A stretch of DNA of 40,635 nucleotides, taken from IMG/VR virus record IMGVR_UViG_2541047850_000015. One strand, written 5' to 3'. The position numbers and the translations under genes were made by a program. Below the pieces are notes generated by a model, which made no database searches, was not told the DNA's origin, and saw only the letters and a list, made by a program, of their open reading frames with translations. The stretch comes from a virus (taxonomy: Duplodnaviria > Heunggongvirae > Uroviricota > Caudoviricetes). Shown here piece by piece: positions 229 through 40,635 of the stretch (the stretch's first letter is position 1; each line of letters begins with the position of its first letter).

Positions 229-3174
229 TTAGTGCTTCCCTTCTATTAAGTCTAACCTAGCTTTTATTCTTTCTATTTCTCTGCGCTGCCATGCCGCCTC
301 GATATAGAATAAGAGATCAGGTCTGACCCCCCATCTAGATCCTGCTGGCGTTATTTCAACGCGCTCAATGATGTCTTCTATTACCATCACTGGATTATCA
401 TCCTCATCAACAATGATGCTCCCGTCATTATCAGTCAGCGGCATTTCCCTTTGGCCAGTAATGACGTCATCATATACTGCGGGATAATCGTCATAGCAAA
501 GAAAGGCATAGCGGCATGTTGTGCTTTCTTCTTCCATGAGTCCGTGAGAAATAAGAACATCACGAAGTTGCTGCGCGATTACACCATGATGTATCCTCGC
601 CCCTTCTTCCCCCTTTATAGCGACAGCGTTCAGCCATTTATAAGCGATATACCTGACGTCACCCCAGGCATCCAGCAATGCTTCGTCAGGAGAGACCGGC
701 TCTGTCTTTAATGTTCCGTCACTGGTAACCACAGGATTGGAGCCAAGATAAACTGTCGAGAACCTGTTTCCCGGACCACCAAGAGCATTTACATTATCAA
801 GATAAGGTTTAACATCTCCGTTCTCAAAAAGATGTTCGAGTGCGTTATATACCGCGCGACGTGGAGTACTGCTTCCGGAACCATGCAACGTTATCATTGC
901 ACCATCTGCTGAAGACGTTGTTTCACCGCCGCTAACGATTAATCTCTGAGCGGTAACATCATCAGACGGTACTTTCTTCGCAATAATGGCGTAATTACCC
1001 TCAAGTTTGACTTCCGCGCGAACTTGTCCTGATGTACCTGCATGGACAGTCAGTGACTGGACGGCAACATCATCTGTGAAATCAACGGGTACAGGAACCG
1101 TCCTCACGCCTGACGTCGACATAAAAGTAGGAAGCGTTCTGTTAGGAGTGGCTCCGTAGACAAAATCCCTTGAAACAAATTCTTCCTGTTTAATTTTCAC
1201 CCTGAAACAATACAAATCAGCCGGGTGACCATCGTGAACATAAGGATATTTTCTGTTGTTATCCCCTATGCTCCATGGGTTTAGAAAATCTTCCCCACCG
1301 AAAATGTAGTACAGCCAGTTGTCTTTGATACAAACTGAACCAACACCAACCGCAGAGTTAACTATTCCGCCCTGATAAATCTGATCAGTAACATTAACCC
1401 ACTCTACATTATCCAGACTCCACTCATTGACGTTAACTCTGGTCATAAATGTTCTTGGATAATTTCCTGCATAACGGTTATCAGGTTCTCCTCCTTCCCA
1501 CTCACCAAATGCGCGCTCACTGCCAAAAATAACCAGCTCATCGCCAACTTTGGCAAAAGGAAGGTTTGAGTGATGAACATTATTTGGGAAGCGAAGAGAA
1601 TTCCATGATGTACCTAAATCAGAGCTTCTGTGCAATGAACTACCGGGTTGAGTACTTAATGTCCCCCTGGTCGTCAGATACAGAATGCCATCATAATATT
1701 TTACACATGGCTCAGATGCATTCGCCTCATATTCTGCAGGTATGCGTCTGCGAACAAAGCTACCAGGAGAACCGAAAGCATCAGAGAAATAGAGTATCCC
1801 AAGCTCGCGTGGACCAATATCACCATTATGGTAGCCAACAGCAAAACTGTTATCGCTAATCGTCGCAAAACTGTGAATCTCAGTAACAGGAGTGCTTCCG
1901 TCAACAAAAGAAGGAATAGTTCCAAGACTGGTTTTTCTCCATGGTGACGAGTGAAATGATGTGCCAAAACTCCAGTATCTACCCTCGTTATTCTGATCCA
2001 CATCCTGGGTATTTTGCGTCGTAACTGTAAAGGTATTTTTATCAATAACAGTAGTCACCGTCATATTCCCGGTAACATCTGTAACACCAGAGTTTGAGAA
2101 GTTGACAAAATCACCAGCAAATAATCCGTGATCAGTAATGCGAATATAAGCGACTTGCTGATTTGCTGCTTTCGTTATACCACCATAAACGCGAAGGCTG
2201 CGACTCATTGGGCGATCCCACAACTCTGCAACCTGCAGTTTATTTCCTCTCACGGTCCGCGTCTCAATTACAGCAAAAAGGCGATTTCTGACAACCCCCA
2301 TACTCATGCAGTGATAGTTAACTGTGGGATAGTTTTCATGTAAATCTGTAAGCCATTCCGGCGTTGTCCAGGTCTTCCCGTCATCTCCTGAGCGAACCCA
2401 TGCAACATGGAGGTTATTTACACCATGGCGGTCTCCAGCCATAAAAGGCGCATAGATGACATTGTCATATACAAACGTTTTATCCTGCGTCCAGGCGTTG
2501 TACCACGGTGTATCTGTAATTTTAAATAACTCTCCCTGGATAAAATCTTCAGAAGCATAAAAAAGAGGCTGACCCGGTATTCTCTCAAATAAAAAACGAG
2601 CATTTTTAAATCGACTGACATCTGGAAGAGTTGATACTTTAAAAGTAAGCCCTCGCCCATCTATCTTTTCACCACCTGTTGCAACAGAAAGTAATTCTGA
2701 TAGAGCTGATGTATCATCATGAACACCATCACCAATAGCCCCCCAACCTCTTACATCATAACTGTCTCTCCATCTTGCTATCTGAAGTTTTGGGTATTTA
2801 TTCGCTCCATCTGGGTCTTCTAATTGCTGCCGTAGTTGATCTGGGTCATACTTCAGCACATTAGGAAAATAGAACTGCTGCGCACCATACGCATCATAAA
2901 CAGCCATAGAATGGCCTTGCACGGTAACGAATTTGGCAATCTGTCCGTTATATACAGGATATCCAGCAGCGTTAATGATGATTGGTTGAGAAACAGGAAC
3001 GTGAGAACCGTCTTCGTTCTCCACATAAGCCTGAATCTGGTTTTCAGGATTTACAGGGTCAGTATCAATTTTACCGATATAAATTTTGCCATTAGCTACG
3101 GCTTTAAAAGAACGCGCCATAGTGAAGAGTTGCGAAGGCATCGATACAATCACATTGGCTGTAATGTCTGTCAT
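229..3174 (-). CDS. Tailspike: P22 gp9-type N-terminal head-binding domain fused to an endo-N-acetylneuraminidase (endosialidase) domain with C-terminal intramolecular chaperone domain
   Basis: N-terminus [10 protein letters not shown]...[11 protein letters not shown]...VLKYDPDQ closely resembles P22 gp9 N-terminus; two Asp-box motifs ([16 protein letters not shown]) typical of sialidase beta-propellers; C-terminal about 150 aa resembles the self-cleaving chaperone domain of K1F/K5 tailspikes. Confidence 0.85.
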
Positions 3175-3296: not shown

Positions 3297-4220
3297 TTAA
3301 AGTTTTATTGAGTGGCACGCTCTATCACGTATCGCTGCGAATGAAGCTATCTCTTTAAGTGCCCAGCTTTGCTCAGCCATTAAATGGCGAAGTGCTTTTA
3401 GTTCAGCTCTTACTGCTGAAACGTCATACCCCGCTTTTGTCAGAATATTGATTAGTTTATACGCCGGACTGCATTCAACGAGTGCGCTGCGGTCAAGAGC
3501 AACAGTATCACCGCATTGCTGCCTGATAATGGCGTAAGGTGCATTTTCAGCAAACCATGAAATCGGGAAGTTAATATCCAGTTTTGGCGCTGGTAACTCT
3601 TCTTGTTTGCCAATGAACTCACCTTCAAGTGGAACTCGAGCTGCAAGTGACAGTGCTTCGGTGAACTGCTCCTCACTGATTTCTTTGTACGAACATCCAA
3701 AATGGGATTTCAGTGAGGACCACATGGTGATCATCGCCTTAGCCTGTTTTTCTTTTGGCAGAGACTGACCGCGACTCATGACGAGTTGTTTAATGGCTTC
3801 CTGCTGTTCAGTGGTGATTTTACCCGGCAACGCCTTTTTAGCTTTGCGTGGGTTAACTACATGACCTTTAGTCCAGTACTCGTATAGCACATCGTCACAC
3901 TCTTCCTGATACTGGATTACCTTGTCGCGGATTTCAGGACGGACTTTGTTTGGCTGAATGCTTGAAAGCCAAGCCGCAAACTTACGAAAGGCAAGGCATA
4001 TCATTAACTGTTTACCGCCAGCAGAAGGTATTTCGATTTCCGAAATACCTTTGACAAATCTCTGTTTTAATTTAACAAATTGAGCAGCCCAAACCATACC
4101 CATGCCTTCTACAACGGGTTTCATAGGAACGTAAGGTTCATTGTTAATGCTGACCAAAAAGAGATTTGTTCCGTGGAATGGAACGTTGATTGTATGTTCT
4201 GCAATTGCTACACTCGTCAT
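3297..4220 (-). CDS. ant: Antirepressor Ant (P22 Ant-like, AntA N-terminal domain plus KilAC-like C-terminal region)
   Basis: 307 aa, position downstream of arc in immI, size and organisation like P22 Ant (300 aa). Confidence 0.8.
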   Translation of the reverse strand: MTSVAIAEHTINVPFHGTNLFLVSINNEPYVPMKPVVEGMGMVWAAQFVKLKQRFVKGISEIEIPSAGGKQLMICLAFRKFAAWLSSIQPNKVRPEIRDKVIQYQEECDDVLYEYWTKGHVVNPRKAKKALPGKITTEQQEAIKQLVMSRGQSLPKEKQAKAMITMWSSLKSHFGCSYKEISEEQFTEALSLAARVPLEGEFIGKQEELPAPKLDINFPISWFAENAPYAIIRQQCGDTVALDRSALVECSPAYKLINILTKAGYDVSAVRAELKALRHLMAEQSWALKEIASFAAIRDRACHSIKL

Positions 4221-4750: not shown

Positions 4751-5005
4751 ATGGCTAGAAACGATCCGCACTTTAACTTCCGTATGCCTTTGGAAGTAAG
4801 AGAAAAATTGAAATTAAGAGCAGAGGCTAACGGAAGGTCAATGAACTCTGAGTTATTACAAATCGTTCAGGATGCTCTCTCAAAGCCATCACCGATTGCA
4901 GGCTATCGAGACGAAGCTGAACGCTTGGCTGATCAGCAAGCAGAGCAGTTCAAGGCCGTTGTGTTTGAGACACTTAAAAAGATTTATGGCAAGGATGATA
5001 AATAA
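4751..5005 (+). CDS. mnt: Mnt repressor
   Basis: MARNDPHFNFRMPLEVREKLKLRAEANGRSMNSELLQIVQDALSKPSP... is near-identical to P22 Mnt. Confidence 0.92.
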   Translation: MARNDPHFNFRMPLEVREKLKLRAEANGRSMNSELLQIVQDALSKPSPIAGYRDEAERLADQQAEQFKAVVFETLKKIYGKDDK

Positions 5006-5541
5006 TGCTGCACACAATTCATTTCTTATGCCCCGTTAACACTGCCACTGTTGGGCAACTTCAGAACCACTGTCTCACCGCATTATCTCAAGGCGCAACT
5101 GAATTAAATATCCATATATCAAGTCAGGGAGGGGAAACTGCCGCTGGCTTTACTGCGTATAACTTTCTTAAGTCACTCCCTGTTACCGTTAGAACTCACA
5201 ACATAAGCAATGTTGAATCCATAGCTAATATCGTTTTCCTGGCTGGCTCAGAACGTTTCGCAAACCCATTATCAAGATTCCTGTTACATCCTCTATTATG
5301 GTGCTTTGCCTCCCCAGCCGCCGACCATGCCAGATTGAGAGAGTACGGGAAATGCCTCGATAACGATCTTGATCGCTTCGTTGAGACGTTCAATATCGAC
5401 ATCGGAACCCATATTAGGTGGGCATCCCTGATAGCAGACTCGACCATTTTGGATGCTAACAAGGCTCTTGAGCATGGCATAATTAATTCCATAAAAACCG
5501 CAAGGCTGGCATCCAATCAGGCAAACTGGTGGGTTGTTTGA
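5005..5541 (+). CDS. ClpP-like serine protease-domain protein (178 aa), translationally coupled to mnt (TAATG overlap)
   Basis: Alignable by eye with ClpP: ISSQGGETAAGFTAY / VSTIC..S..A / RF..P.SR...H; candidate Ser-His-Asp triad positions retained (ESIAN, LLHPL, ADSTILDA). Not in the head module. Confidence 0.55.
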   Translation: MLHTIHFLCPVNTATVGQLQNHCLTALSQGATELNIHISSQGGETAAGFTAYNFLKSLPVTVRTHNISNVESIANIVFLAGSERFANPLSRFLLHPLLWCFASPAADHARLREYGKCLDNDLDRFVETFNIDIGTHIRWASLIADSTILDANKALEHGIINSIKTARLASNQANWWVV

Positions 5542-5566
5542 TGGGTAAATCATGAATACTCCTTAT

Positions 5567-5597
5567 AAAAAACCCGCGATTAAGCGGGTTTGATTAG
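5567..5597. terminator. Bidirectional hairpin terminator between convergent ClpP-like gene and ORF6N gene (CCCGC-GATTAA-GCGGG flanked by A/T runs)
   Basis: Hairpin with T-rich tracts on both strands in the 75-nt convergent intergenic gap. Confidence 0.5.
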
Positions 5598-5616
5598 CAA
5601 TAATCTATCCTTTTGG

Positions 5617-6474
5617 TTAAAAAAGTTTTCGAAGATCTACGCCATACACAGCAAGCCAAGCATCGCGAGGCCATGACTTAACTGAGCCAAAGCGTGGGTC
5701 GTTGACATCATGTGGGGTGACGTCATTCTCCCGGCACCACTTGCGAAGAGGCTGCCATTTGAATTTCTGCCCCAGCTTCTTTTCTACCGGGATAATGGCG
5801 GCGTAGTTCTTTCCTTCCCCTACCCGTTCAGCTAATTTGTTTTTGGCGCGGACGGCTGCTGATGCGGTAGCCATTGCTGTAGCTTCGCGTTTTGCTGCAA
5901 TCCACAACTTTTCTTTTACCGCTCTGTCGCGCTGTTGCTCAAGAAGCCGATTCTCTTTGACCTTTAGAAGTAAATCTTCCAGAGCCTGCTCGTATGTCTG
6001 CGGTAGGATGCTTTTTACCAAGGGACGGAAGTAAGCATTTTCCAACCGTTCGAAGAAAGACCATGCTTCGTCTGTATCGACAATTTTCGACATCCGCGCT
6101 GCGCCCTTCTCCGTCCACAAAACAATTGAACGAGCTTTGTTCGAAATTTGTGCGTGACTATTAGTCACTCGCAAATTCTTCAACTCTTGGCCTTTAATAG
6201 TGAAGATGTGAATTCCTTCAATGAAGCGTCCAGCATTGCGTGACAGGTTTTTCCGAATGTTAGCCTCATCCGTACCATAACCTGAAGCCAGCGTTTCAGT
6301 CGTAACAACACGTAAACCCTCCCATTCAATCACTGGAAGCGGCTGGGGATCGACATTTGGCTCATGAACTGCTAAATTTAATAAAGTCATTGGTTGGACC
6401 CTTATGACAAGTTTCAATGAAAGCCGGTAGCTCGTAACTGTCGGCTTTTCTTTTTGCACCGTCCTGTGCGTCAA
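5617..6474 (-). CDS. Antirepressor-like protein with ORF6N-type N-terminal domain
   Basis: Motif LPVIEWEGLRVVTTETLASGYGTDEANIRKNLSRNAGRFIEGIHIFTIKGQEL typical of ORF6N domain; track start is TTG, an alternative ATG lies about 6390. Confidence 0.6.
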   Translation of the reverse strand: MTHRTVQKEKPTVTSYRLSLKLVIRVQPMTLLNLAVHEPNVDPQPLPVIEWEGLRVVTTETLASGYGTDEANIRKNLSRNAGRFIEGIHIFTIKGQELKNLRVTNSHAQISNKARSIVLWTEKGAARMSKIVDTDEAWSFFERLENAYFRPLVKSILPQTYEQALEDLLLKVKENRLLEQQRDRAVKEKLWIAAKREATAMATASAAVRAKNKLAERVGEGKNYAAIIPVEKKLGQKFKWQPLRKWCRENDVTPHDVNDPRFGSVKSWPRDAWLAVYGVDLRKLF

Positions 6475-7206
6475 TCAGTGAATCCATTCCTCACCGCGAA
6501 GCATTGCCAACATTGGCTGCGCATGCTTCACGACAATATTGCTGTTATCCAGTTCCTGTACTTCACGAAGCAGGATCTTCTTGGTTTCCACAGTCATATA
6601 ACGAATGTCGTGGGCGATGTCGTATAGCATCCCTGCGTATTCTGACTTAGCCTGTTTCATTGCCGGGTAAAGTTGCTGGCTAACCCGCTGGCTCTTTTCC
6701 ATCCAGAGCTGGAGATAGCAAAGGCTGATTAACTCATCATCTGTGAACTGTTTGGCGATCGGTGAATCCGTGGCTTCACGATCCAAAATATCCAGCACCC
6801 AACGGCGGAACTCTTTGGCCTTGGGCGTAGAAGCAAACATCGCCACCAAGTGAGCGCCTCGGAGTGAGTAAACTCTGACCGATTTGTTACGTAAGCTATT
6901 GTTTATCCCGTTGACACTCATATTGAGGGTCAATGACATTGAGTCGGAAAACTCATCAGCATTACGGGCATAAATTTGGCTGATGGCATCAGTTTTTTTA
7001 TAGCCGAGAGCCTTAGCTAGTTCGGTGGAGGTAAACCAGATAGACCCGCCCTCTGTTACTGGGTTAAAGGTGAATCCTTGGAAGTTGTAATCTGATTTTG
7101 CTACAATATTCATATCGATATTTCCGTCGTAGGATTTGTTCGATACCGAAGCCTGACGGTCTAGCCACCGTTGGGCTTCAACGTTTTTAATGGATGATAA
7201 TTTCAC
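6475..7206 (-). CDS. Bro-N domain antirepressor-like protein (probable true start at ATG about 7113)
   Basis: FTSTELAKALGY...VRVYSLRGAHLVAMFASTPKAKEFRRWVLDIL matches Bro-N domain; track start is GTG at 7206 and would overlap the upstream small ORF. Confidence 0.6.
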   Translation of the reverse strand: MKLSSIKNVEAQRWLDRQASVSNKSYDGNIDMNIVAKSDYNFQGFTFNPVTEGGSIWFTSTELAKALGYKKTDAISQIYARNADEFSDSMSLTLNMSVNGINNSLRNKSVRVYSLRGAHLVAMFASTPKAKEFRRWVLDILDREATDSPIAKQFTDDELISLCYLQLWMEKSQRVSQQLYPAMKQAKSEYAGMLYDIAHDIRYMTVETKKILLREVQELDNSNIVVKHAQPMLAMLRGEEWIH

Positions 7207-7360
7207 CTTTCTTCTCCATATCCATGACCTTAGCCATAAAGAAATCGATCATCCCCTGAGTCGAGCGGTAGCTTTTAGCTGCGTTACTTTCCAAAAACTC
7301 ACGCACTTCAGCACTTGGGCGGTAGGAGATAGGCTTGATATCTTTTTTCTTCTGTTCCAT
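7187..7360 (-). CDS. Small 57-aa protein, predicted ribbon-helix-helix-like regulator (first gene of the antirepressor operon)
   Basis: Hand-translated MEQKKKDIKPISYRPSAEVREFLESNAAKSY...; GAGGTG RBS 5 nt upstream of ATG; strand-helix-helix pattern by eye. Below ORF-track size cut-off. Confidence 0.4.
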   Translation of the reverse strand: MEQKKKDIKPISYRPSAEVREFLESNAAKSYRSTQGMIDFFMAKVMDMEKKGEIIIH

Positions 7361-7457
7361 TATTCACCTCATGTAGTTTTGTTATTCAATTGCTCAATCT
7401 TCAACATTAGGTTAGTACCAGACTAATATTGAGTCAATGATTTTTTAAGGTGCAAAT
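7361..7457. promoter_or_regulatory. Divergent promoter/operator region of accessory switch; imperfect inverted repeat CAATTGCTCAAT ... TATTGAGTCAATG
   Basis: 97-bp gap between divergent starts; inverted repeat seen by eye. Confidence 0.35.
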
Positions 7458-8318
7458 ATGAGTTTTGATGATTCTTTTTCTAAACGAGTTGCCATAGCGC
7501 GCAACTCCATCGGTTTGACTCAATCCGAGCTTGCTAAGAAAGTAGGCGTGGTATCCAGACAGATCGCTGCTTACGAGGGCGGGGAAGCCAAGCCAAGAGA
7601 AAAGGCACTTCAAAACCTTGCGGCTGCATTGGGAACTACCACTGAATGGCTTACGCAAGGGAAAGGAGATGGCCCTGACGTTAGCAGTGTCAAGAGAACT
7701 GTTACTGTGCGCGAGATTCCTGTGCTAACACACGTACAGGCAAGATTTGAATCGCTAGATGATTTACTAAAGACTGCTGCTATAAAGGACTTTATTCCAG
7801 CCCCTCCTGAAGCCAATGAATACTGTTTTGCCGTTGAAATACAAGGAGACTCCATGTCTTCCGGTGATGGGATTAGCTTTCCTCCTGGAACAATCGTAAC
7901 TTTCGATTCATCGCTAGAGGCTGTTTCTGGTGACTTTGTGATGTGTGTGCTGAATGATGATTCTGAGGCTACATTTAAGCAGCTTATACTGGATCAGCGC
8001 CAAATCTACCTTAAGCCACTTAACCCTTTATACCCTATGTTCCAACCTGATTTTATCGAGGTTGTTGGCGTGGCTATTCATTCTCAGTTCCGAATAAAGA
8101 GGGAAAAACTTATCTCTCCAATGCCGCATAGCGAAGTAGAGAAACTGGTTGAAGAAGCACACAAGGTTAGCCAAGATTTTTGGTCAAATGCAAAATTTGA
8201 CAAGAATACACCCTTTGACGAACGTCTTAAGCGACTAGATGAAATTGCTGAGCGCCTTGAGAAATTTGCTAACTACAGCCTTTCACAGGCCCGTTATAAA
8301 CACTCACCAGACAAGTAA
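7458..8318 (+). CDS. cI/LexA-like repressor: N-terminal HTH (XRE) plus S24 peptidase domain with about 75-aa C-terminal helical extension
   Basis: HTH segment GLTQSELAKKVGVVSRQIAAYEGG; S24 motifs GDSM and FKQL...KPLNP; AAGGTG RBS. Confidence 0.7.
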   Translation: MSFDDSFSKRVAIARNSIGLTQSELAKKVGVVSRQIAAYEGGEAKPREKALQNLAAALGTTTEWLTQGKGDGPDVSSVKRTVTVREIPVLTHVQARFESLDDLLKTAAIKDFIPAPPEANEYCFAVEIQGDSMSSGDGISFPPGTIVTFDSSLEAVSGDFVMCVLNDDSEATFKQLILDQRQIYLKPLNPLYPMFQPDFIEVVGVAIHSQFRIKREKLISPMPHSEVEKLVEEAHKVSQDFWSNAKFDKNTPFDERLKRLDEIAERLEKFANYSLSQARYKHSPDK

Positions 8319-8402
8319 TAAGCACAAAATCACTTAACCAACCCGGGTAGGCTGCGCTCCCTTGAGTCACATGGTATCCTGCACAAAACTAAGGAGGTTG
8401 GT

Positions 8403-8753
8403 GTGAATACTCAGTCTGTCATCATGGTTTTCCTTGGGCTGATTGTCGCAAAACTATATCCAGACTGGTGGAAAGGGGCATTAGCTACTGTCGCCATCTA
8501 TTTGCTTTTATCCATCGTTAAGCGATCACTCGCTGAGACCGTAAATCAAGCAAAACGTTTCTCATTTAAGAGTTTAATAAACTATGTTACTGGGCTTATT
8601 TTTTGCCTTTCAATTCTGATCGCTTCGGCTTTTTTGCCCGTATCAATAGCTAATTTTTTTGGCGCACCATATGAGGTAGGTTATCTATTCTCTGTTTCCT
8701 GTCTTGCCATTGCTCTTCTTTCCCTGTGGACGAGATCAAAGAATAAAAATTAG
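8403..8753 (+). CDS. Small integral membrane protein (about 4 predicted TM helices), GTG start with AAGGAGG RBS
   Basis: Four hydrophobic stretches of about 20 aa; lysogen-direction strand, convergent with gp16 homologue; position equivalent to P22 sieA. Confidence 0.5.
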   Translation: MNTQSVIMVFLGLIVAKLYPDWWKGALATVAIYLLLSIVKRSLAETVNQAKRFSFKSLINYVTGLIFCLSILIASAFLPVSIANFFGAPYEVGYLFSVSCLAIALLSLWTRSKNKN

Positions 8754-8770
8754 CCATCCGTGGCTGCCAG

Positions 8771-32190: not shown

Positions 32191-32307
32191 ATGCCCTCCA
32201 TAGTAACCATGAAACAATAATACGATATGTACTTTTGGAATGCAAACAAAAAATACATCTTGTGCATGGATGGTTTTAGTACAGAGCGTAATAATAAGGA
32301 TATGAAA
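32191..32307. promoter_or_regulatory. OR region with divergent pR/pRM promoters and operators (individual operator sites not resolved)
   Basis: 117-bp AT-rich gap between divergent cro and cI starts. Confidence 0.6.
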
Positions 32308-32961
32308 ATGAAATGGTATGAACTGGCTAGATCCAGAATGAAAGAACTCGGCATAACTCAAGAGAAGTTAGCTGAAGAGCTTGGTATGACGCAGGGTGGA
32401 ATTGGTCACTGGTTGCGCGGATCTCGTCATCCATCTCTTGACGAGATTGGTGTGGTGTTTAAATACCTTGGTATTGATAACGTCTCATTCAACCACGACG
32501 GTACATTTTCACCTGTTGGCGAATACTCATCTGCCCCGTTAAAAAAACAATATGAGTACCCTGTTTTTTCTCATGTTCAGGCCGGGATGTTCTCGCCTGA
32601 GCTTAGAACCTTTACCAAAGGCGATGCGGAGAGATGGGTCAGCACAACCAAAAAAGCCAGTGATTGTGCGTTTTGGCTTGAAGTTGAAGGTAATTCCATG
32701 ACCGCACCAACAGGATCCAAGCCAAGCTTTCCTGACGGGATGTTAATTCTCGTTGACCCTGAGCAGACTGTTGAGCCAGGTGATTTCTGCATAGCCAGAC
32801 TTGGTGGTGACGAGTTTACCTTCAAGAAACTGATCAGGGATAGCGGTCAGGTGTTCCTACAACCACTAAACCCGCAATATCCAATGATCCCATGCAATGA
32901 TAGCTGTTCCGTAGTAGGGAAAGTTATCGCCAGCCAGTGGCCTGAAGAGACATTTAGTTAA
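32308..32961 (+). CDS. cI: Prophage repressor cI (P22 C2-like, HTH plus S24 autopeptidase domain)
   Basis: C-terminal domain [13 protein letters not shown]...[28 protein letters not shown] resembles P22 C2; start chosen at second ATG (MKWYEL) with AAGGA spacing; track start 32227 is probably too long. Confidence 0.88.
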
Positions 32962-33374: not shown

Positions 33375-33683
33375 ATGACGGTAATCGTATGCGGGAAATC
33401 AACATTTGCAGGAAATGCCAAAACTCGCCGTCATGAGCGGCGCAGAAAGCTGGCTATTGAGCGTGATGCTATCTGTAACATCATTGATTCTATCTTCGGC
33501 ACAGACAGTGAGGAACCTGTTCAGAAAGGCACGAGAAAGCGTTTAAGCCTTTCTGAAAAAGCAATATCACTCGGCAACATTCGTAACCAAAATACCGACG
33601 AATGCAGTGGAAGTATTTGCCTGCCAAACGTAGCTCTTTACGCAGCAGGCTACCGGAAATCAAAACAACTGACAGCGAGGTGA
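33375..33683 (+). CDS. N: Antiterminator N (P22 gp24-type)
   Basis: Arginine-rich motif GNAKTRRHERRRKLAIERD near N-terminus, as in P22 N peptide. Confidence 0.9.
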   Translation: MTVIVCGKSTFAGNAKTRRHERRRKLAIERDAICNIIDSIFGTDSEEPVQKGTRKRLSLSEKAISLGNIRNQNTDECSGSICLPNVALYAAGYRKSKQLTAR

Positions 33684-35601: not shown

Positions 35602-35913
35602 ATGATGATTCTGACTCTGAATGATAAGCGTGAAATATCGCAAATCATCGCAAGTTTTACTGATGAAGATTACGAACGAATCAACAGTGAAGTTGATCGC
35701 CTCTGCAAACGCTGCGACCCAATAAGCGAAATGCTTCGCTCATATAAGCCAGATGAACACACTAAGGACGCTATCGACTGGCTGGAAGATGATGACTGTG
35801 ACTATCAGGAAAAAGCCGCTGAATGGTTCTGGGATGCAATAACCGAAAGAGTTAAGGCTGAATATGCCTTCGCAATATTCAAACGCAGACACATTTATGG
35901 AGAAGCAGCATGA
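35602..35913 (+). CDS. Hypothetical 103-aa acidic protein upstream of recT
   Basis: ORF in track with strong RBS (ACAGGAGAAAG ATG); stop overlaps recT start. Confidence 0.5.
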   Translation: MMILTLNDKREISQIIASFTDEDYERINSEVDRLCKRCDPISEMLRSYKPDEHTKDAIDWLEDDDCDYQEKAAEWFWDAITERVKAEYAFAIFKRRHIYGEAA

Positions 35914-36812
35914 GCAATATCGTTGAATTCGTTAAACAGCAGGAGCAGTTATTCTGCGGAGCATTGACTGAACAGACGGTGACATGGGCTAAGGAAAGCC
36001 AGTTTGCAATTCAGTATTTCCAGAAAAATGATTACCTGGCTAAAACGGCACTGGCAAATCCAACCAGCGCACAGAACGCCATCATCAATGTTGCGGCGAT
36101 CGGCATCACATTAAACCCGGCCAGCAAACTTGCTTATCTAGTTCCGCGCGACGGCATGGTTTGCCTTGATATCAGCTATATGGGATTACTTCACCTTGCA
36201 CAGTCGACAGGATCAATTAAGTGGGGGCAATGTAAACTGGTGTACTCAAACGACACCTATGAATCAAACGGCCTTGATTCAGCGCCAACCCACAAATACA
36301 ACGCATTTGGTGAGCGAGGCTCTATTGTTGGTGGTTATTGCACGGTTAAAACAGCAGATGGTGACTACCTGACTGAAGAAATGAGTCTGGCAGAAATTAA
36401 AGCTGTGGAAGCAACGAGCAAGGCAAAGAATGGACCGTGGAAGACATTCTGGGAAGAGATGGCGCGTAAAACAATAGTTAAACGCGCCAGCAAATACTGG
36501 CCTAAAGCCCAGCGACTGGATAATGCCATTCACCTGCTTAACGAAGATGAGGGTATGCATCAGGAACCGGTTATGCCGCACAAATCAGAGGAAGATATCC
36601 GCGAAGATGAACGGAAACGCCAGCAGGAAATAATGGAAAAAGCACAACTTCTTTGTGATGAAATGGCTCAGGCTGAAAACATGGATGATTTGAAGAGATA
36701 TTTTGCAGAAGCATATCGCCTGACATCTGGAATGAAATTGCAGCAGAACGTACAAGCCATTTACGCAGAATGCAAAGCGAAACTGGAGGTTGCCAGTGAG
36801 CAAACTGTATGA
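35910..36812 (+). CDS. recT: RecT-family single-strand annealing recombinase
   Basis: Motif NGPWKTFWEEMARKTIVKRASKYWP matches the conserved RecT region (GPW..HWEEMAKKT). Confidence 0.8.
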   Translation: MSNIVEFVKQQEQLFCGALTEQTVTWAKESQFAIQYFQKNDYLAKTALANPTSAQNAIINVAAIGITLNPASKLAYLVPRDGMVCLDISYMGLLHLAQSTGSIKWGQCKLVYSNDTYESNGLDSAPTHKYNAFGERGSIVGGYCTVKTADGDYLTEEMSLAEIKAVEATSKAKNGPWKTFWEEMARKTIVKRASKYWPKAQRLDNAIHLLNEDEGMHQEPVMPHKSEEDIREDERKRQQEIMEKAQLLCDEMAQAENMDDLKRYFAEAYRLTSGMKLQQNVQAIYAECKAKLEVASEQTV

Positions 36813-37278
36813 AATTGCCAATGAATACGCAAAGCTGATAGATTCAGATTTAGAGCCAGAGATGATTGCTGACACAATAGAAGGCATGGAAGGAGAATTT
36901 ACCGATAAAATAGAGCAACTTCTTGCCATTATTAAAAATGAATCTGGTTATGCTGAACGCCTCAAGGAAGAGGCACAGTCACTAAATGAGCGAGCCGCAG
37001 TAATTCAAAATAAGATTGACAGCATTATGGCGTATATAGCGTCATCGCTTGAAATGGTTGGCAAGAAAAAGATTCGAGCAGGTATTCACCAGGTAACAAT
37101 CCGCAAACCGTCAGAAACTGTAGAAATCATCGACTCAAGCGCCCTTCCTCCTGAATACGTTGAGTTTGAAACGACAATTAAAGCCGACAAACTGGCAATC
37201 AAACACCAACTAAAAGCAGGAATAAATATCCCCGGCGCTCAACTCAAAGTTGGGAAACCTTCACTTCTTATCAAATAA
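36796..37278 (+). CDS. Coiled-coil protein, possibly Sipho_Gp157-like (RecT-associated)
   Basis: 160 aa, GTG start with GGAGG RBS; family assignment from memory only, low certainty. Confidence 0.4.
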   Translation: MSKLYEIANEYAKLIDSDLEPEMIADTIEGMEGEFTDKIEQLLAIIKNESGYAERLKEEAQSLNERAAVIQNKIDSIMAYIASSLEMVGKKKIRAGIHQVTIRKPSETVEIIDSSALPPEYVEFETTIKADKLAIKHQLKAGINIPGAQLKVGKPSLLIK

Positions 37279-38066: not shown

Positions 38067-38560
38067 GCAAGATTGACTATCAGGCACTGCGTGAAGAATT
38101 TCAATACATGCAGGAGCATTACAGCGATCCTGCGGATCGTGAAAAACAGGAACTTTATATTTACGCAGAAACGTTGCTGTATGAACTGGATAAAAGCCAG
38201 CAATACATAAAACGCCGCGACCAGGAGAACGAGGATATTGCGCTAACGGTTGGGAGGCTGCGTGTTGAGCTGGAAGCAGCAAAAAAGCGCATAGCAGAAC
38301 TGGAAGCCGAACCTGTAAGCCAAACTTACAAGTTGAACGAGCTGTCGGGCAACTATCCGGTAACTCCGGATGGTTGGATAAGCTGTAGTGAGCGAATGCC
38401 CGCTCAAGATGATTGGATTTTAATTTATTCAAAGCACGGCGAGTATATGGCAGGACAGGTACAAGGGGAATACGTGGAGTTGAGCGACGGCACTTTATCG
38501 TGGTTAGGGAACGCCTTGTACTGGATGCCTCTACCGGAACCGCCGCAGGAGGTTAATTGA
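38063..38560 (+). CDS. DUF551-domain protein (coiled-coil N-terminus, Trp-rich C-terminal domain)
   Basis: GTG start with AGGAGG RBS; C-terminus ...[18 protein letters not shown]...WMPLPEPP resembles DUF551. Confidence 0.5.
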
Positions 38561-38836
38561 TGGTCTCCTTCGCGAAATATACGATTATTGACTGGATAGC
38601 ATTCATTCAGGTTTTGCTCATCTGGTTTTATATGGCTTACAGGAGTGGACAGTGGATTGTCAGTGTAGCCTGTAGCAATGGATGGCGTTGGTAGAACCGA
38701 AAGAATAAAAAAGCGCTGGCCTTGGCTTCGTTTTACGAAGCATTCAATCTTAACAGTCTTCAGCCTGGTTCTGTCGTTGTAGTCACCACTCAAAGCGGCA
38801 TGACGATACAAATTCACAAGCCAAAGGAGGAAGGTC

Positions 38837-39121
38837 GTGGCTAACCTGCAACTTGCCGTTAAAGGTGAATACTTCGATGCCATGATTCGCGGAGAGAAAA
38901 CGGAAGAGTATCGCCTGTGTAATGACTACTGGAATAAGCGAATTATGTTCCGCGAGTATGACCGCCTGATTATCACAAAGGGATATCCGAAGCGCGACGA
39001 TTCCAGCCGCAGAATTGACGTCCCGTATGAAGGGTATGAAATCAAGACAATCACACATCCGCACTTCGGCGATAAACCGGTAAAGGTTTACGCGATAAAG
39101 GTAAATATCGGCAATAAATAA
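38837..39121 (+). CDS. Small ASCH-like (DUF3850-type) domain protein
   Basis: 94 aa, GTG start with AAGGAGG RBS; family assignment tentative. Confidence 0.45.
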   Translation: MANLQLAVKGEYFDAMIRGEKTEEYRLCNDYWNKRIMFREYDRLIITKGYPKRDDSSRRIDVPYEGYEIKTITHPHFGDKPVKVYAIKVNIGNK

Positions 39122-39163
39122 CAATCCTCGCACTCGCGGGGATTTCTTTTATATGGGGATAAT

Positions 39164-39964
39164 ATGACCATCCACTTTCACGGCAGCCCAATATGGGGGG
39201 ATGAGCATGCCCCTACAGATATGCTGATTAAAGCCCTTTACCGTGATGGTGGGGCTTTTGTTTCATTTGCCAGACCAGAGCAGATGAAAAAGATTGCCAT
39301 GTTCCCTTGTGATATACGCCTTGATAACGGCGCTTTTAGCGACTGGATGAAAGCATTAAAGAAAGGCACTCCGGTAGACTGGAGTAAGAGACGAGCAAAA
39401 TTCTACGACTTTGTTGGGAAGTGGTTCAGCAGAATTGAATGGTTTCTTATACCTGACGTTATCGAAGGGACAGAGGCAGAAAACGACGAGCAGATTGAGT
39501 GTGTTCCTGATTGGCTAAAATCAAAAGCGGTTCCTGTCTGGCATACCGACGAATCAATTGAACGTCTTTTACGCCTTTCTGGCAAATTTGAATGGGTGGC
39601 GATTGGATGCTGCGGCCCACACAGGCACATACGCTCTAAATGGTGGGAACAGAGAATGGATGAAGTTTTCACTGAACTTTATATCAATCGTAATTTGAAA
39701 GTGAAAATTCATGGTCTTCGAATGCTCGACGTGAGAGTTCTTGGTATGTATCCGTTCGCCAGTGCGGATTCTACTAATGTTGCTGTTAACGTACCGAAGA
39801 CAGAGAAGCGATTTCCTGAGATTACCGACAAACTGGCACGTACAGCTGTACTTCGCGCTGCTATTGAAAAGGTGCACCCGCCATCGATATCAGCATGGGT
39901 AGACAGAAAGATGAGAGAGCCGGCGCAAGCCGGTTTTTTATTTGAATTCACCGACGCCGCTTAA
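39164..39964 (+). CDS. Hypothetical 266-aa protein with conserved Cys/His cluster (function unknown)
   Basis: ORF with RBS; IGCCGPHRH motif; followed by hairpin terminator. Confidence 0.55.
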   Translation: MTIHFHGSPIWGDEHAPTDMLIKALYRDGGAFVSFARPEQMKKIAMFPCDIRLDNGAFSDWMKALKKGTPVDWSKRRAKFYDFVGKWFSRIEWFLIPDVIEGTEAENDEQIECVPDWLKSKAVPVWHTDESIERLLRLSGKFEWVAIGCCGPHRHIRSKWWEQRMDEVFTELYINRNLKVKIHGLRMLDVRVLGMYPFASADSTNVAVNVPKTEKRFPEITDKLARTAVLRAAIEKVHPPSISAWVDRKMREPAQAGFLFEFTDAA

Positions 39965-39984
39965 TGCGGATTTCTTTTATCTGA

Positions 39985-40009
39985 ACTCGCTACGGCGAGT
40001 TTTGTTTTA
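39985..40009 (+). terminator. Hairpin terminator after 266-aa gene (ACTCGC-TACG-GCGAGT then TTTTGTTTT)
   Basis: Seen in sequence. Confidence 0.55.
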
Positions 40010-40021
40010 TGGAGATGATAA

Positions 40022-40189
40022 ATGCACTTCCAAGTCACAGGTGAATGGAATGGAGAGCCATTCAACAGGGTTATCGAAGCAGAGAACATCAACGACTGCT
40101 ATAACCACTGGATGATATGGGCGCAGATAGCGCATGCAGACGTAACCAATATTCGAATTGAAGAACTGAAAGAACACCAATCCGCCTGA
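40022..40189 (+). CDS. Small hypothetical protein (55 aa)
   Basis: GGAG RBS, ATG, hand-translated MHFQVTGEWNGEPFNRVIEAENINDCYNHWMIWAQIAH...; followed by terminator. Preferred over overlapping minus-strand track ORF. Confidence 0.45.
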   Translation: MHFQVTGEWNGEPFNRVIEAENINDCYNHWMIWAQIAHADVTNIRIEELKEHQSA

Positions 40190-40202
40190 TGGCGGTTTTT
40201 TA
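40182..40202 (+). terminator. Rho-independent terminator (CCGCC-TGAT-GGCGG then T6)
   Basis: Hairpin overlapping the stop codon followed by TTTTTTAT. Confidence 0.6.
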
Positions 40203-40246
40203 TTACCTGATTTGCAGGTTCGATTCCCTATTCGGAGATAGCACTC

Positions 40247-40447
40247 ATGCAACACGAACTACAGCCTGATTCCCTGGTTGATTTGAAATTCATCATGGCT
40301 GATACTGGCTTTGGTAAAACCTTCATCTACGACCGGATTAAGTCCGGCGACCTGCCAAAAGCCAAAGTTATCCACGGTCGAGCAAGATGGTTATATCGTG
40401 ACCATTGTGAATTCAAAAATAAGCTCTTAAGCCGCGCCAATGGGTAA
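40247..40447 (+). CDS. AlpA-family excisionase/regulator-like protein (HTH)
   Basis: 66 aa; LVDLKFIMADTGFGKTFIYDRIKSGDLPKAKVIHGRARWLYRD resembles AlpA/Xis HTH_17 proteins; position at prophage end. Confidence 0.55.
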   Translation: MQHELQPDSLVDLKFIMADTGFGKTFIYDRIKSGDLPKAKVIHGRARWLYRDHCEFKNKLLSRANG

Positions 40448-40635
40448 AATAGCGGGTAAAATATTTCTCACATCTAAAAAACACCATTCCAATCAATCCC
40501 CTGCTGCTTCAAGTAGATGTCTGCAGGGGACACCATTCTTGTGTTTATCCCTAAAACCACGTAAAAACCGTAAATTATTAAATTCGCACTAGCAATGCCG
40601 AATAAGGCACACCAGGAACTCGTGGTCTTATTCAT

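Follow-up and report, generated by a model that had tools for sequence, protein, structure and literature searches.

The DpdA of phage 9g is a validated enzyme; alone in E. coli, it produced 790 dPreQ0 per 10^6 nucleotides (nt) in plasmid DNA (PMC6884629). Modified DNA is also known from phages that carry dpdA without any pathway genes. Salmonella phage 7-11, whose homologue is 58% identical to the protein described here, contained dADG at 50 per 10^6 nt (~0.02% of G) according to mass spectrometry, and Pantoea phage MED16 (43% identical homologue) contained 354 dADG per 10^6 nt (~0.13% of G) and trace dPreQ0. The hosts of such DpdA-only phages encode the full queuosine (Q) pathway. Bacterial Dpd restriction-modification islands occur in some E. 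coli and Salmonella. Here we describe a dpdA-like gene (the target) in a 40,635-nt stretch of DNA (IMG/VR record IMGVR_UViG_2541047850_000015; hereafter the window), which represents a CUS-3/P22-like E. coli prophage. The gene probably encodes a minimal, stand-alone ("singleton") phage DpdA, i.e., a guanine transglycosylase resembling tRNA-guanine transglycosylase (TGT), with the predicted activity of placing host-made 7-deazaguanine into phage DNA. The protein family is already catalogued, and the target is essentially the same protein as gp29 of phage HK106.

The target belongs to the singleton DpdA cluster

To assign the target to a family, its 266-residue translation was compared with protein families, individual proteins, and phage genomes. 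It matched PHROG 887 (E 3e-102), a family named "queuine tRNA-ribosyltransferase" into which the validated 9g DpdA also falls (E 2e-98). When a 40-sequence alignment of the target family was compared with 9g DpdA by hhalign, a probability of 95.3% and an E value of 2.3e-8 were obtained, and a hidden Markov model (HMM) made from 118 diverse family members scored 9g DpdA at 65.6 bits. HK106 gp29 (YP_007151699) shares 97.7% DNA identity and 98.5% protein identity with the target. It is named queuine tRNA-ribosyltransferase in RefSeq and was catalogued as a "singleton" DpdA in Supplementary Data 1 of Hutinet et al. (2019). A tblastn search with the target also recovered phages 7-11, PEAT2, SE131, SEN1, SPN3UB, and BTP1, which are DpdA-only phages in the same supplementary data (Hutinet et al. 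2019). By sequence, the target is thus a member of the γ-proteobacterial singleton DpdA cluster. A preliminary description, made from the letters of the DNA alone, had offered no nameable family for this protein; the near-identical HK106 gp29, with its RefSeq name and its listing as a DpdA, supplies one. The same description had considered a 7-deazaguanine transglycosylase and then discarded it, a guess that pointed to the right family. In the literature, we found no experiments on HK106, prophage, or singleton DpdAs beyond Hutinet et al. (2019) and the MED16 paper.

The open reading frame (ORF) begins with ATG. This start is fixed by the homologues, which open with the same N-terminal MT[IV]H[FY]HG, and a Shine-Dalgarno-like GGGG(A) run lies 5 nt upstream of it. 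At E<=1e-3, 2230 homologues were present in a protein database clustered at 90% identity, and a profile of 40 homologues matched 1896 clusters at 50% identity. At the nucleotide level (>=95% identity), a search of 5426 complete E. coli genomes located the gene in 82, strain W being one of them, and each time on the chromosome. Because of these matches, the ORF is a real gene and not a chance reading frame, in agreement with the well-formed gene (ribosome-binding site, terminator) seen at the outset; a terminator-like hairpin is located 19 nt past the stop codon (Table 1). Among the E. coli genome copies listed, every one was annotated as "hypothetical protein" by NCBI PGAP. A 100% identical copy is present in E. 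coli CU37RT-2, where dsdC lies directly beyond the prophage end.

The predicted fold and the conserved catalytic set fit a DpdA

The AlphaFold2 model, calculated with an alignment, had a pLDDT of 90.1 and a pTM of 0.87. It consists of eight β-strands alternating with helices, which corresponds to the (β/α)8 TIM barrel of TGT type, and its residues 255-266 are disordered (pLDDT <50). The preliminary description had proposed a check for a TIM-barrel or transglycosylase-like fold, and such a barrel was indeed obtained. The best structural match of the model was DpdA, followed by Cap10 (score 14.1), ArcTGT (13.6), TGT (13.4), and QTRT2 (12.3). Unrelated TIM barrels scored close behind (PdxJ, 13.7), and Foldseek against the PDB returned generic barrels only; therefore, the fold alone is not decisive. 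Foldseek against BFVD gave 27 viral proteins at E<=1e-3, many of which are phage proteins named queuine tRNA-ribosyltransferase (E 1e-8 to 1e-5).

The active site was compared with that of Salmonella Montevideo DpdA. In this enzyme, Asp95 is the general acid/base, Phe99 stacks on the base, Asp130 and His181 read the base, Leu236 is also among the essential residues, and Asp256 is the nucleophile, essential according to mutagenesis (PMC10164549). Its Gly206-Gly207 loop after β6 contacts the 7-substituent of the base, as the Gly-rich β6-α6 loop does in both TGT and DpdA (PMC10164549). In the target, each matching strand ends, on its C-terminal side, in a residue of the fitting kind (Table 1). 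Conservation was determined from 118 aligned sequences, with 117 distant representatives that are 25-52% identical to the target. Asp54 and Ala57 were each kept in 98% of the 118 sequences, as was Phe or Tyr at position 58. This segment aligns with LDSGAFS of 9g DpdA, and in position it matches Asp95/Phe99 of the S. Montevideo enzyme. By topology, the likely counterpart of Asp98 is Asp130. His127 lies in VPVWH, which aligns with LPCFH of 9g DpdA, and its counterpart is His181. In the Gly-rich loop, Gly148 was kept in 97% and Gly151 in 71% of the sequences. The loop aligns with GGLVGA of 9g DpdA. VHGF is a further motif of 9g DpdA that aligned with the target. Leu185 is located after β7. Asp202 and Ser203, the former being the predicted nucleophile and the counterpart of Asp256, were kept in 92% and 91%, respectively, and SADST of the target aligns with SCDSS of 9g DpdA.

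The Gly-rich loop holds the CCGPHRH motif (residues 149-155, nt 39608-39628), which the preliminary description had correctly noted and emphasised. This emphasis did not hold: in the 117 distant members, Cys149 was kept in 1%, Cys150 in 4%, and His153 in 8%, and the consensus of the segment is G-S-S-G-E-Y. A metal-binding role of the motif was therefore rejected. At most, CCGPHRH is a lineage-specific form of the Gly-rich loop that in TGTs chooses the fitting 7-deazaguanine. A structural Zn2+ site was not found either, as there are no conserved Cys or His residues after Asp202. Just 64 residues follow this nucleophile, which leaves the protein without a Zn-binding module. A cysteine cluster is also missing from the validated 9g DpdA, so the Zn site defines TGT and bacterial DpdA (bDpdA), not phage DpdA.

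The window has no base synthesis genes, and in many relatives dpdA is paired with a transporter gene

Neither FolE nor QueD, QueE, or QueC was detected in the window, which falls short of the int end of the prophage by only ~2.3 kb according to comparison with CUS-3. Apart from this end, the prophage shows the trait of the singleton cluster, i.e., no genes for preQ0/G+ synthesis. A Vut/YhhQ-type query also had no match in the window. The same four proteins were absent within 10 kb of 79 viral (IMG/VR) homologues. The arrangement of the Queuovirinae module, in which dpdA is clustered with folE, queD, queE, and queC or gat-queC, was not observed. Because the phage has neither preQ0 genes nor a transporter, the base would have to come from the E. 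coli queuosine pathway or through host YhhQ.

The 79 IMG/VR loci comprise 49 with a homologue that is <95% identical to the target and 30 with the target allele. In 21 of the 49 diverged loci, a Vut_1 gene (PF02592, YhhQ-type) ends 0-6 nt before dpdA. Homologues in the Vut-paired loci (L041-L062, L065, L076; L007-L009 5540-7383) are 42-87% identical to the target, and every locus at 57-87% identity has the upstream Vut_1 except L068 (58%, phage 7-11). None of the 30 loci with the target allele has an upstream Vut_1. YhhQ is a preQ0 transporter, and YhhQ homologues were reported to be uncorrelated with any phage group (Hutinet et al. 2019). The vut-dpdA pair may be an under-appreciated two-gene module for salvage and insertion of the base.

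Fusions were also observed. In lambdoid prophages, a homologue with 76% identity is joined to Dam, and Vut_1 lies before this DpdA-Dam fusion, which occurs in at least three independent contigs. In another relative, the fusion partner is a DNA adenine methylase of the D12 class, and in one it is QueD/PTPS. Together with the transporter pairing, these gene arrangements argue for a free 7-deazapurine base and DNA as the likely substrates. An apparent fusion to a tail baseplate domain (P0133) was set aside as a probable assembly or gene-calling artefact.

Another observation concerns a 44% identical DpdA homologue (L013 5001-5810, E. coli CP057104.1), whose gene lies between those for the holin and the endolysin in another E. 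coli prophage, with a ParB_N-N6_N4 DNA methylase gene a few positions away. Such a late-region place is unusual for a DNA-modification gene.

Proposed mechanism and expected product

According to the mechanism we propose, dpdA would be expressed early during lytic growth; most likely, N-antiterminated transcription would start at pL and read through the flanking hairpins. The enzyme would bind double-stranded phage DNA after replication and flip out the target guanine. Asp202 would then attack C1', and guanine would leave with Asp54 as the general acid, which would give a covalent enzyme-DNA intermediate. A free 7-deazaguanine base, held by Asp98, His127, the G148-G151 loop, and the stacking Phe58 and Leu185, would be deprotonated by Asp54, attack, and thereby resolve the intermediate. 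The base would be preQ0 or its QueC-pathway relative ADG, obtained from the E. coli queuosine pathway or the host YhhQ importer. The presumed use of the modification would be to blunt a nuclease or defence system of the next host.

Because phages 7-11 and MED16 carry such low levels of modification, our best guess by analogy is that the packaged DNA would contain sparse dADG and/or dPreQ0, at ~0.1% of G or less. A more specific proposal, to which we give a low probability, is that the stand-alone DpdAs of temperate enterobacterial phages make a sparse, sequence-specific dADG mark by direct insertion of ADG, and that this mark does not serve as general anti-restriction. It might instead copy the Dpd "self" mark, allowing passage through Dpd-armed hosts, or act as an epigenetic signal. 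The vut-dpdA pair would then be the salvage-and-insert module, and the allele in the window a reduced form that uses host YhhQ and QueC. ADG is an intermediate of host QueC, and its direct insertion would need no DpdC.

Weighing of alternative explanations

Several observations weigh against an active DNA-modifying enzyme of the DpdA family. The target matched no Pfam family at E<=10, TGT PF01702 included, and no NCBIfam model. PADLOC models matched neither the target nor five relatives, and neither the single protein nor the 40-sequence profile gave a meaningful match in PDB sequence searches. These negative searches say little, since phmmer likewise returned no PDB relative for the validated DpdA of 9g. 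In the hhalign and HMM alignments, the Asp of 9g DpdA is placed three residues downstream of Asp98. Hutinet et al. (2019) placed the singleton DpdAs of γ-proteobacterial phages in a cluster of their own and left open whether their function has diverged. The DNA of Mycobacterium phage Orion, a singleton phage, is unmodified, and phiSM DpdA1 showed no activity in E. coli. In 7-11 and MED16, modification is very low and no restriction protection is seen; for MED16 DNA, no protection attributable to dADG was found among the restriction enzymes tried, which leaves an anti-restriction role unproven. In addition, dADG would have to form without a DpdC-type hydratase. The separate cluster, the results with Orion and phiSM DpdA1, and the very low modification without restriction protection could mean that the TGT fold was kept and the function diverged, so that the protein is a base-removing DNA glycosylase, a binder of free 7-deazaguanine, or inactive in E. 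coli, and the phage DNA contains no 7-deazaguanine. We regard such divergence as unlikely. Strong purifying selection acts across the 117 distant relatives on the full catalytic set, which includes the two Asp residues that a double-displacement exchange needs as well as the predicted Asp and His for base binding. In 21 of 49 relatives, the gene is tightly coupled to that of a deazapurine-type transporter, an arrangement that speaks for a free base as a substrate, and the two nearest tested phages do contain dADG. The host of Orion has no preQ0 pathway, which is enough on its own to explain the negative result with this phage.

The RefSeq and PHROG names of the family would fit a tRNA-guanine transglycosylase that acts on host or phage tRNA and changes queuosine status and translation during infection. 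However, these database names were transferred by homology, and the missing match to Pfam PF01702 counts here against a tRNA enzyme. The 266-residue protein has no Zn subdomain, no tRNA-binding insertions, and no lid as found in TGTs, and its best structural match is a DNA enzyme, DpdA. Fusions to DNA methylases (Dam, D12) occur in relatives, the DNA of related phages is modified, and the window contains no tRNA genes. Thus, an action on tRNA appears highly improbable. The high structural rank of Cap10 raises the further option of an enzyme that handles protein-conjugated 7-deazaguanine, e.g., to interfere with type IV CBASS, and does not act on DNA. Neither a QueC-like Cap9 nor a CD-NTase partner was found in the window or among the neighbours, so the corresponding operon is absent there. 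Relatives have conserved partners of another kind (a small-molecule transporter, DNA methylases), and sequence identity to Cap10 is 10%, compared with 15% to DpdA. We consider a Cap10-like role to be extremely improbable. Insertion of a host-made 7-deazaguanine into phage DNA by a singleton DpdA thus remains the explanation that we favour as probable.

Prophage context and cassette architecture

The left end of the prophage carries the endosialidase-type tailspike gene and ant. The tailspike gene (229-3174, - strand, 981 residues) has ~96% DNA identity to the region with the K1-specific endosialidase tailspike of CUS-3, and this likeness suggests a capsule-targeting prophage. A variable block next to ant (4944-8770) is absent from CUS-3 and may be an extra immunity or antirepressor module; its genes are listed in Table 1. 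The regulatory and replication genes are O-like, DnaB-like, CII-like, CI-like, and N-like (antiterminator). No tRNA genes were detected within the window.

On the + strand, the genes follow in the order DUF2528, RecT, Gam-like, DUF5405, DUF551/Ea22, DUF4752, ASCH-domain genes, dpdA, a 55-residue ORF, and the TorI-type excisionase. The preliminary description had placed the gene in the early-left region near the excisionase, and this order on one strand bears it out. The excisionase is of TorI type (KplE1-like); the prophage ends beside dsdC, and attR lies within ~190 nt of the window end.

The dpdA gene is a discrete accessory cassette. Phage phiv205-1, a close relative, aligns at 97% identity to 38172-39155 and to 39968-40635, with a 16-bp overlap. 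Because the alignments stop at 39155 and restart at 39968, this phage lacks exactly 39156-39967. The cassette is bounded by two copies of the 13-bp direct repeat GGATTTCTTTTAT (Table 1), and the site flanked by them looks like a mosaic junction that permits gain or loss of a single gene. The repeat GGATTTCTTTTAT derives from the T-tract of a terminator-like hairpin. The same dpdA cassette is present in HK106, where it is preceded by different upstream genes. The gene before dpdA in the window (38837-39121, + strand) was named an ASCH-domain protein by PGAP; it belongs to phrog_625 and has no Pfam match at E<=1e-3. A functional link between this gene and dpdA was considered and rejected, since dpdA lies beside other genes in HK106, and the ASCH gene of phiv205-1 occurs without dpdA.

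No sigma-70-like promoter was predicted upstream of dpdA on the + strand. Of the terminator-like hairpins around the gene, the one at 39914-39939 has a T-run and falls within the last 50 nt of the dpdA ORF, where it codes for the tail REPAQAGFLFEF, which is disordered (pLDDT <50). The frame of the Dam-fused relative runs on through the peptide equivalent to REPAQAGFLFEF into the methylase domain.

Table 1. Positions of the dpdA-like gene, its predicted active-site elements, and other features of the window
Feature	Position (nt)	Strand	Remark
ant	3297-4220	-	
ClpP-like protease	5005-5541	+	
ORF6N-domain protein	5617-6474	-	
Bro-N/P22_AR_C antirepressor-like protein	6475-7206	-	
Second HTH-plus-S24 LexA/CI-like repressor	7458-8318	+	
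CI-like repressor	32227-32961	+	
N-like antiterminator	33375-33683	+	
RecT	35910-36812	+	
Gam-like gene	36790-37278	+	
Terminator-like hairpin between ASCH-domain gene and dpdA	39123..39144	+	consensus scan
Left copy of 13-bp direct repeat GGATTTCTTTTAT	39140..39152	+	cassette boundary
dpdA-like gene	39164..39964	+	minimal TGT-fold (β/α)8 barrel; ATG start, 266 residues plus stop
D54-N55-G56-A57-F58	39323..39337	+	predicted general acid/base Asp and base-stacking Phe, after β3 (strand 50-54)
D98 (in P97-D98)	39455..39457	+	predicted base-recognition Asp, β4-α4 loop; kept 118/118
H127	39542..39544	+	conserved DpdA histidine, end of β5; kept 118/118
G148-C149-C150-G151-P152-H153-R154-H155	39605..39628	+	Gly-rich β6-α6 loop after strand 144-148
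D202-S203	39767..39772	+	predicted nucleophile Asp, end of β8 (strand 200-203)
Terminator-like hairpin within 3' end of dpdA ORF	39914..39939	+	consensus scan; codes part of disordered C-terminal tail
Right copy of 13-bp direct repeat GGATTTCTTTTAT	39968..39980	+	cassette boundary
Terminator-like hairpin past dpdA stop codon	39983..40002	+	consensus scan
TorI-type Xis	40247-40447	+	

Significance of the assignment

If the enzyme is active, a single gene would let a temperate coliphage use the queuosine pathway of its host to put 7-deazaguanines into its own DNA. The finding is ordinary in novelty; its useful parts are the annotation correction and the vut-dpdA pairing. About 1.5% of complete E. 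coli genomes, including that of the laboratory and industrial strain W, carry the gene as a "hypothetical protein" (PGAP), and Pfam and NCBIfam have no model for this family of ~1900 clusters, so a correct name is useful. The modest new point is that the vut-dpdA pairing in relatives supports base salvage.

Comparison with known systems

Tgt and ArcTGT (PF01702), for which the TGT reference residues are Asp156 (base recognition) and Asp280 (nucleophile), have two superfamily features in common with the target, namely the TIM-barrel fold and, by prediction, the catalytic Asp triad. In contrast to these enzymes, the target has no Pfam match, no Zn site, no tRNA-binding elements, and no dimer interface modules, and its predicted substrate is DNA.

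As in S. Montevideo DpdA (PDB 7UI4), β3, β4, and β8 are each followed by an Asp, β5 by a His, and β6 by a Gly-rich loop. A low modification density with dPreQ0/dADG is likewise a property of bacterial DpdA. However, bDpdA consists of 413 residues, and the target has neither its four insertions (Ins8, of 128 residues, among them) nor its structural Zn2+ site. In the bacterial Dpd system, bDpdA depends on DpdB, an ATPase, and dADG is the work of DpdC. Neither DpdB nor DpdC was evident among the ordinary lambdoid early-left neighbours of the target, in an inspection that included no search aimed at their homologues, and the combination of Dpd model matches with DpdB/DpdC partners that marks a bacterial Dpd system was not found.

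DpdA1 of the Queuovirinae (9g gp03, CAjan DpdA) belongs to the same PHROG as the target and shares with it D-x-G-A-F, the conserved His, H-G-[LF], and [AC]-D-S-[ST]. Like 9g DpdA, which modifies DNA in E. coli without DpdB, the target has no Zn-binding cysteine cluster. It differs from 9g DpdA in that the two proteins are only ~21% identical and in that its gene has no pathway partners. Compared with the Queuovirinae, the closest tested relatives of the target modify ~0.13% of G or less, and the modification is dADG, not dPreQ0 or dG+.

The closest likeness is to the singleton DpdAs (the third group of Hutinet et al. 2019 and the 'DpdA/TGT_1' cluster of the MED16 paper), which include HK106 gp29, 7-11 YP_004782407, PEAT2, SE131, and MED16 gp38. 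The target is 98.5% identical to HK106 gp29, 64% to the PEAT2 protein, 58% to that of 7-11, and 43% to that of MED16. It shares with them the length of ~250-270 residues, a phage without preQ0 genes, and a host with the Q pathway. A Vut transporter gene, which precedes dpdA in PEAT2 and in most relatives of 57-87% identity, is missing upstream of the target. Finally, the target resides in a P22/CUS-3-like prophage, whereas HK106, which carries essentially the same protein, is an HK97-like siphovirus.

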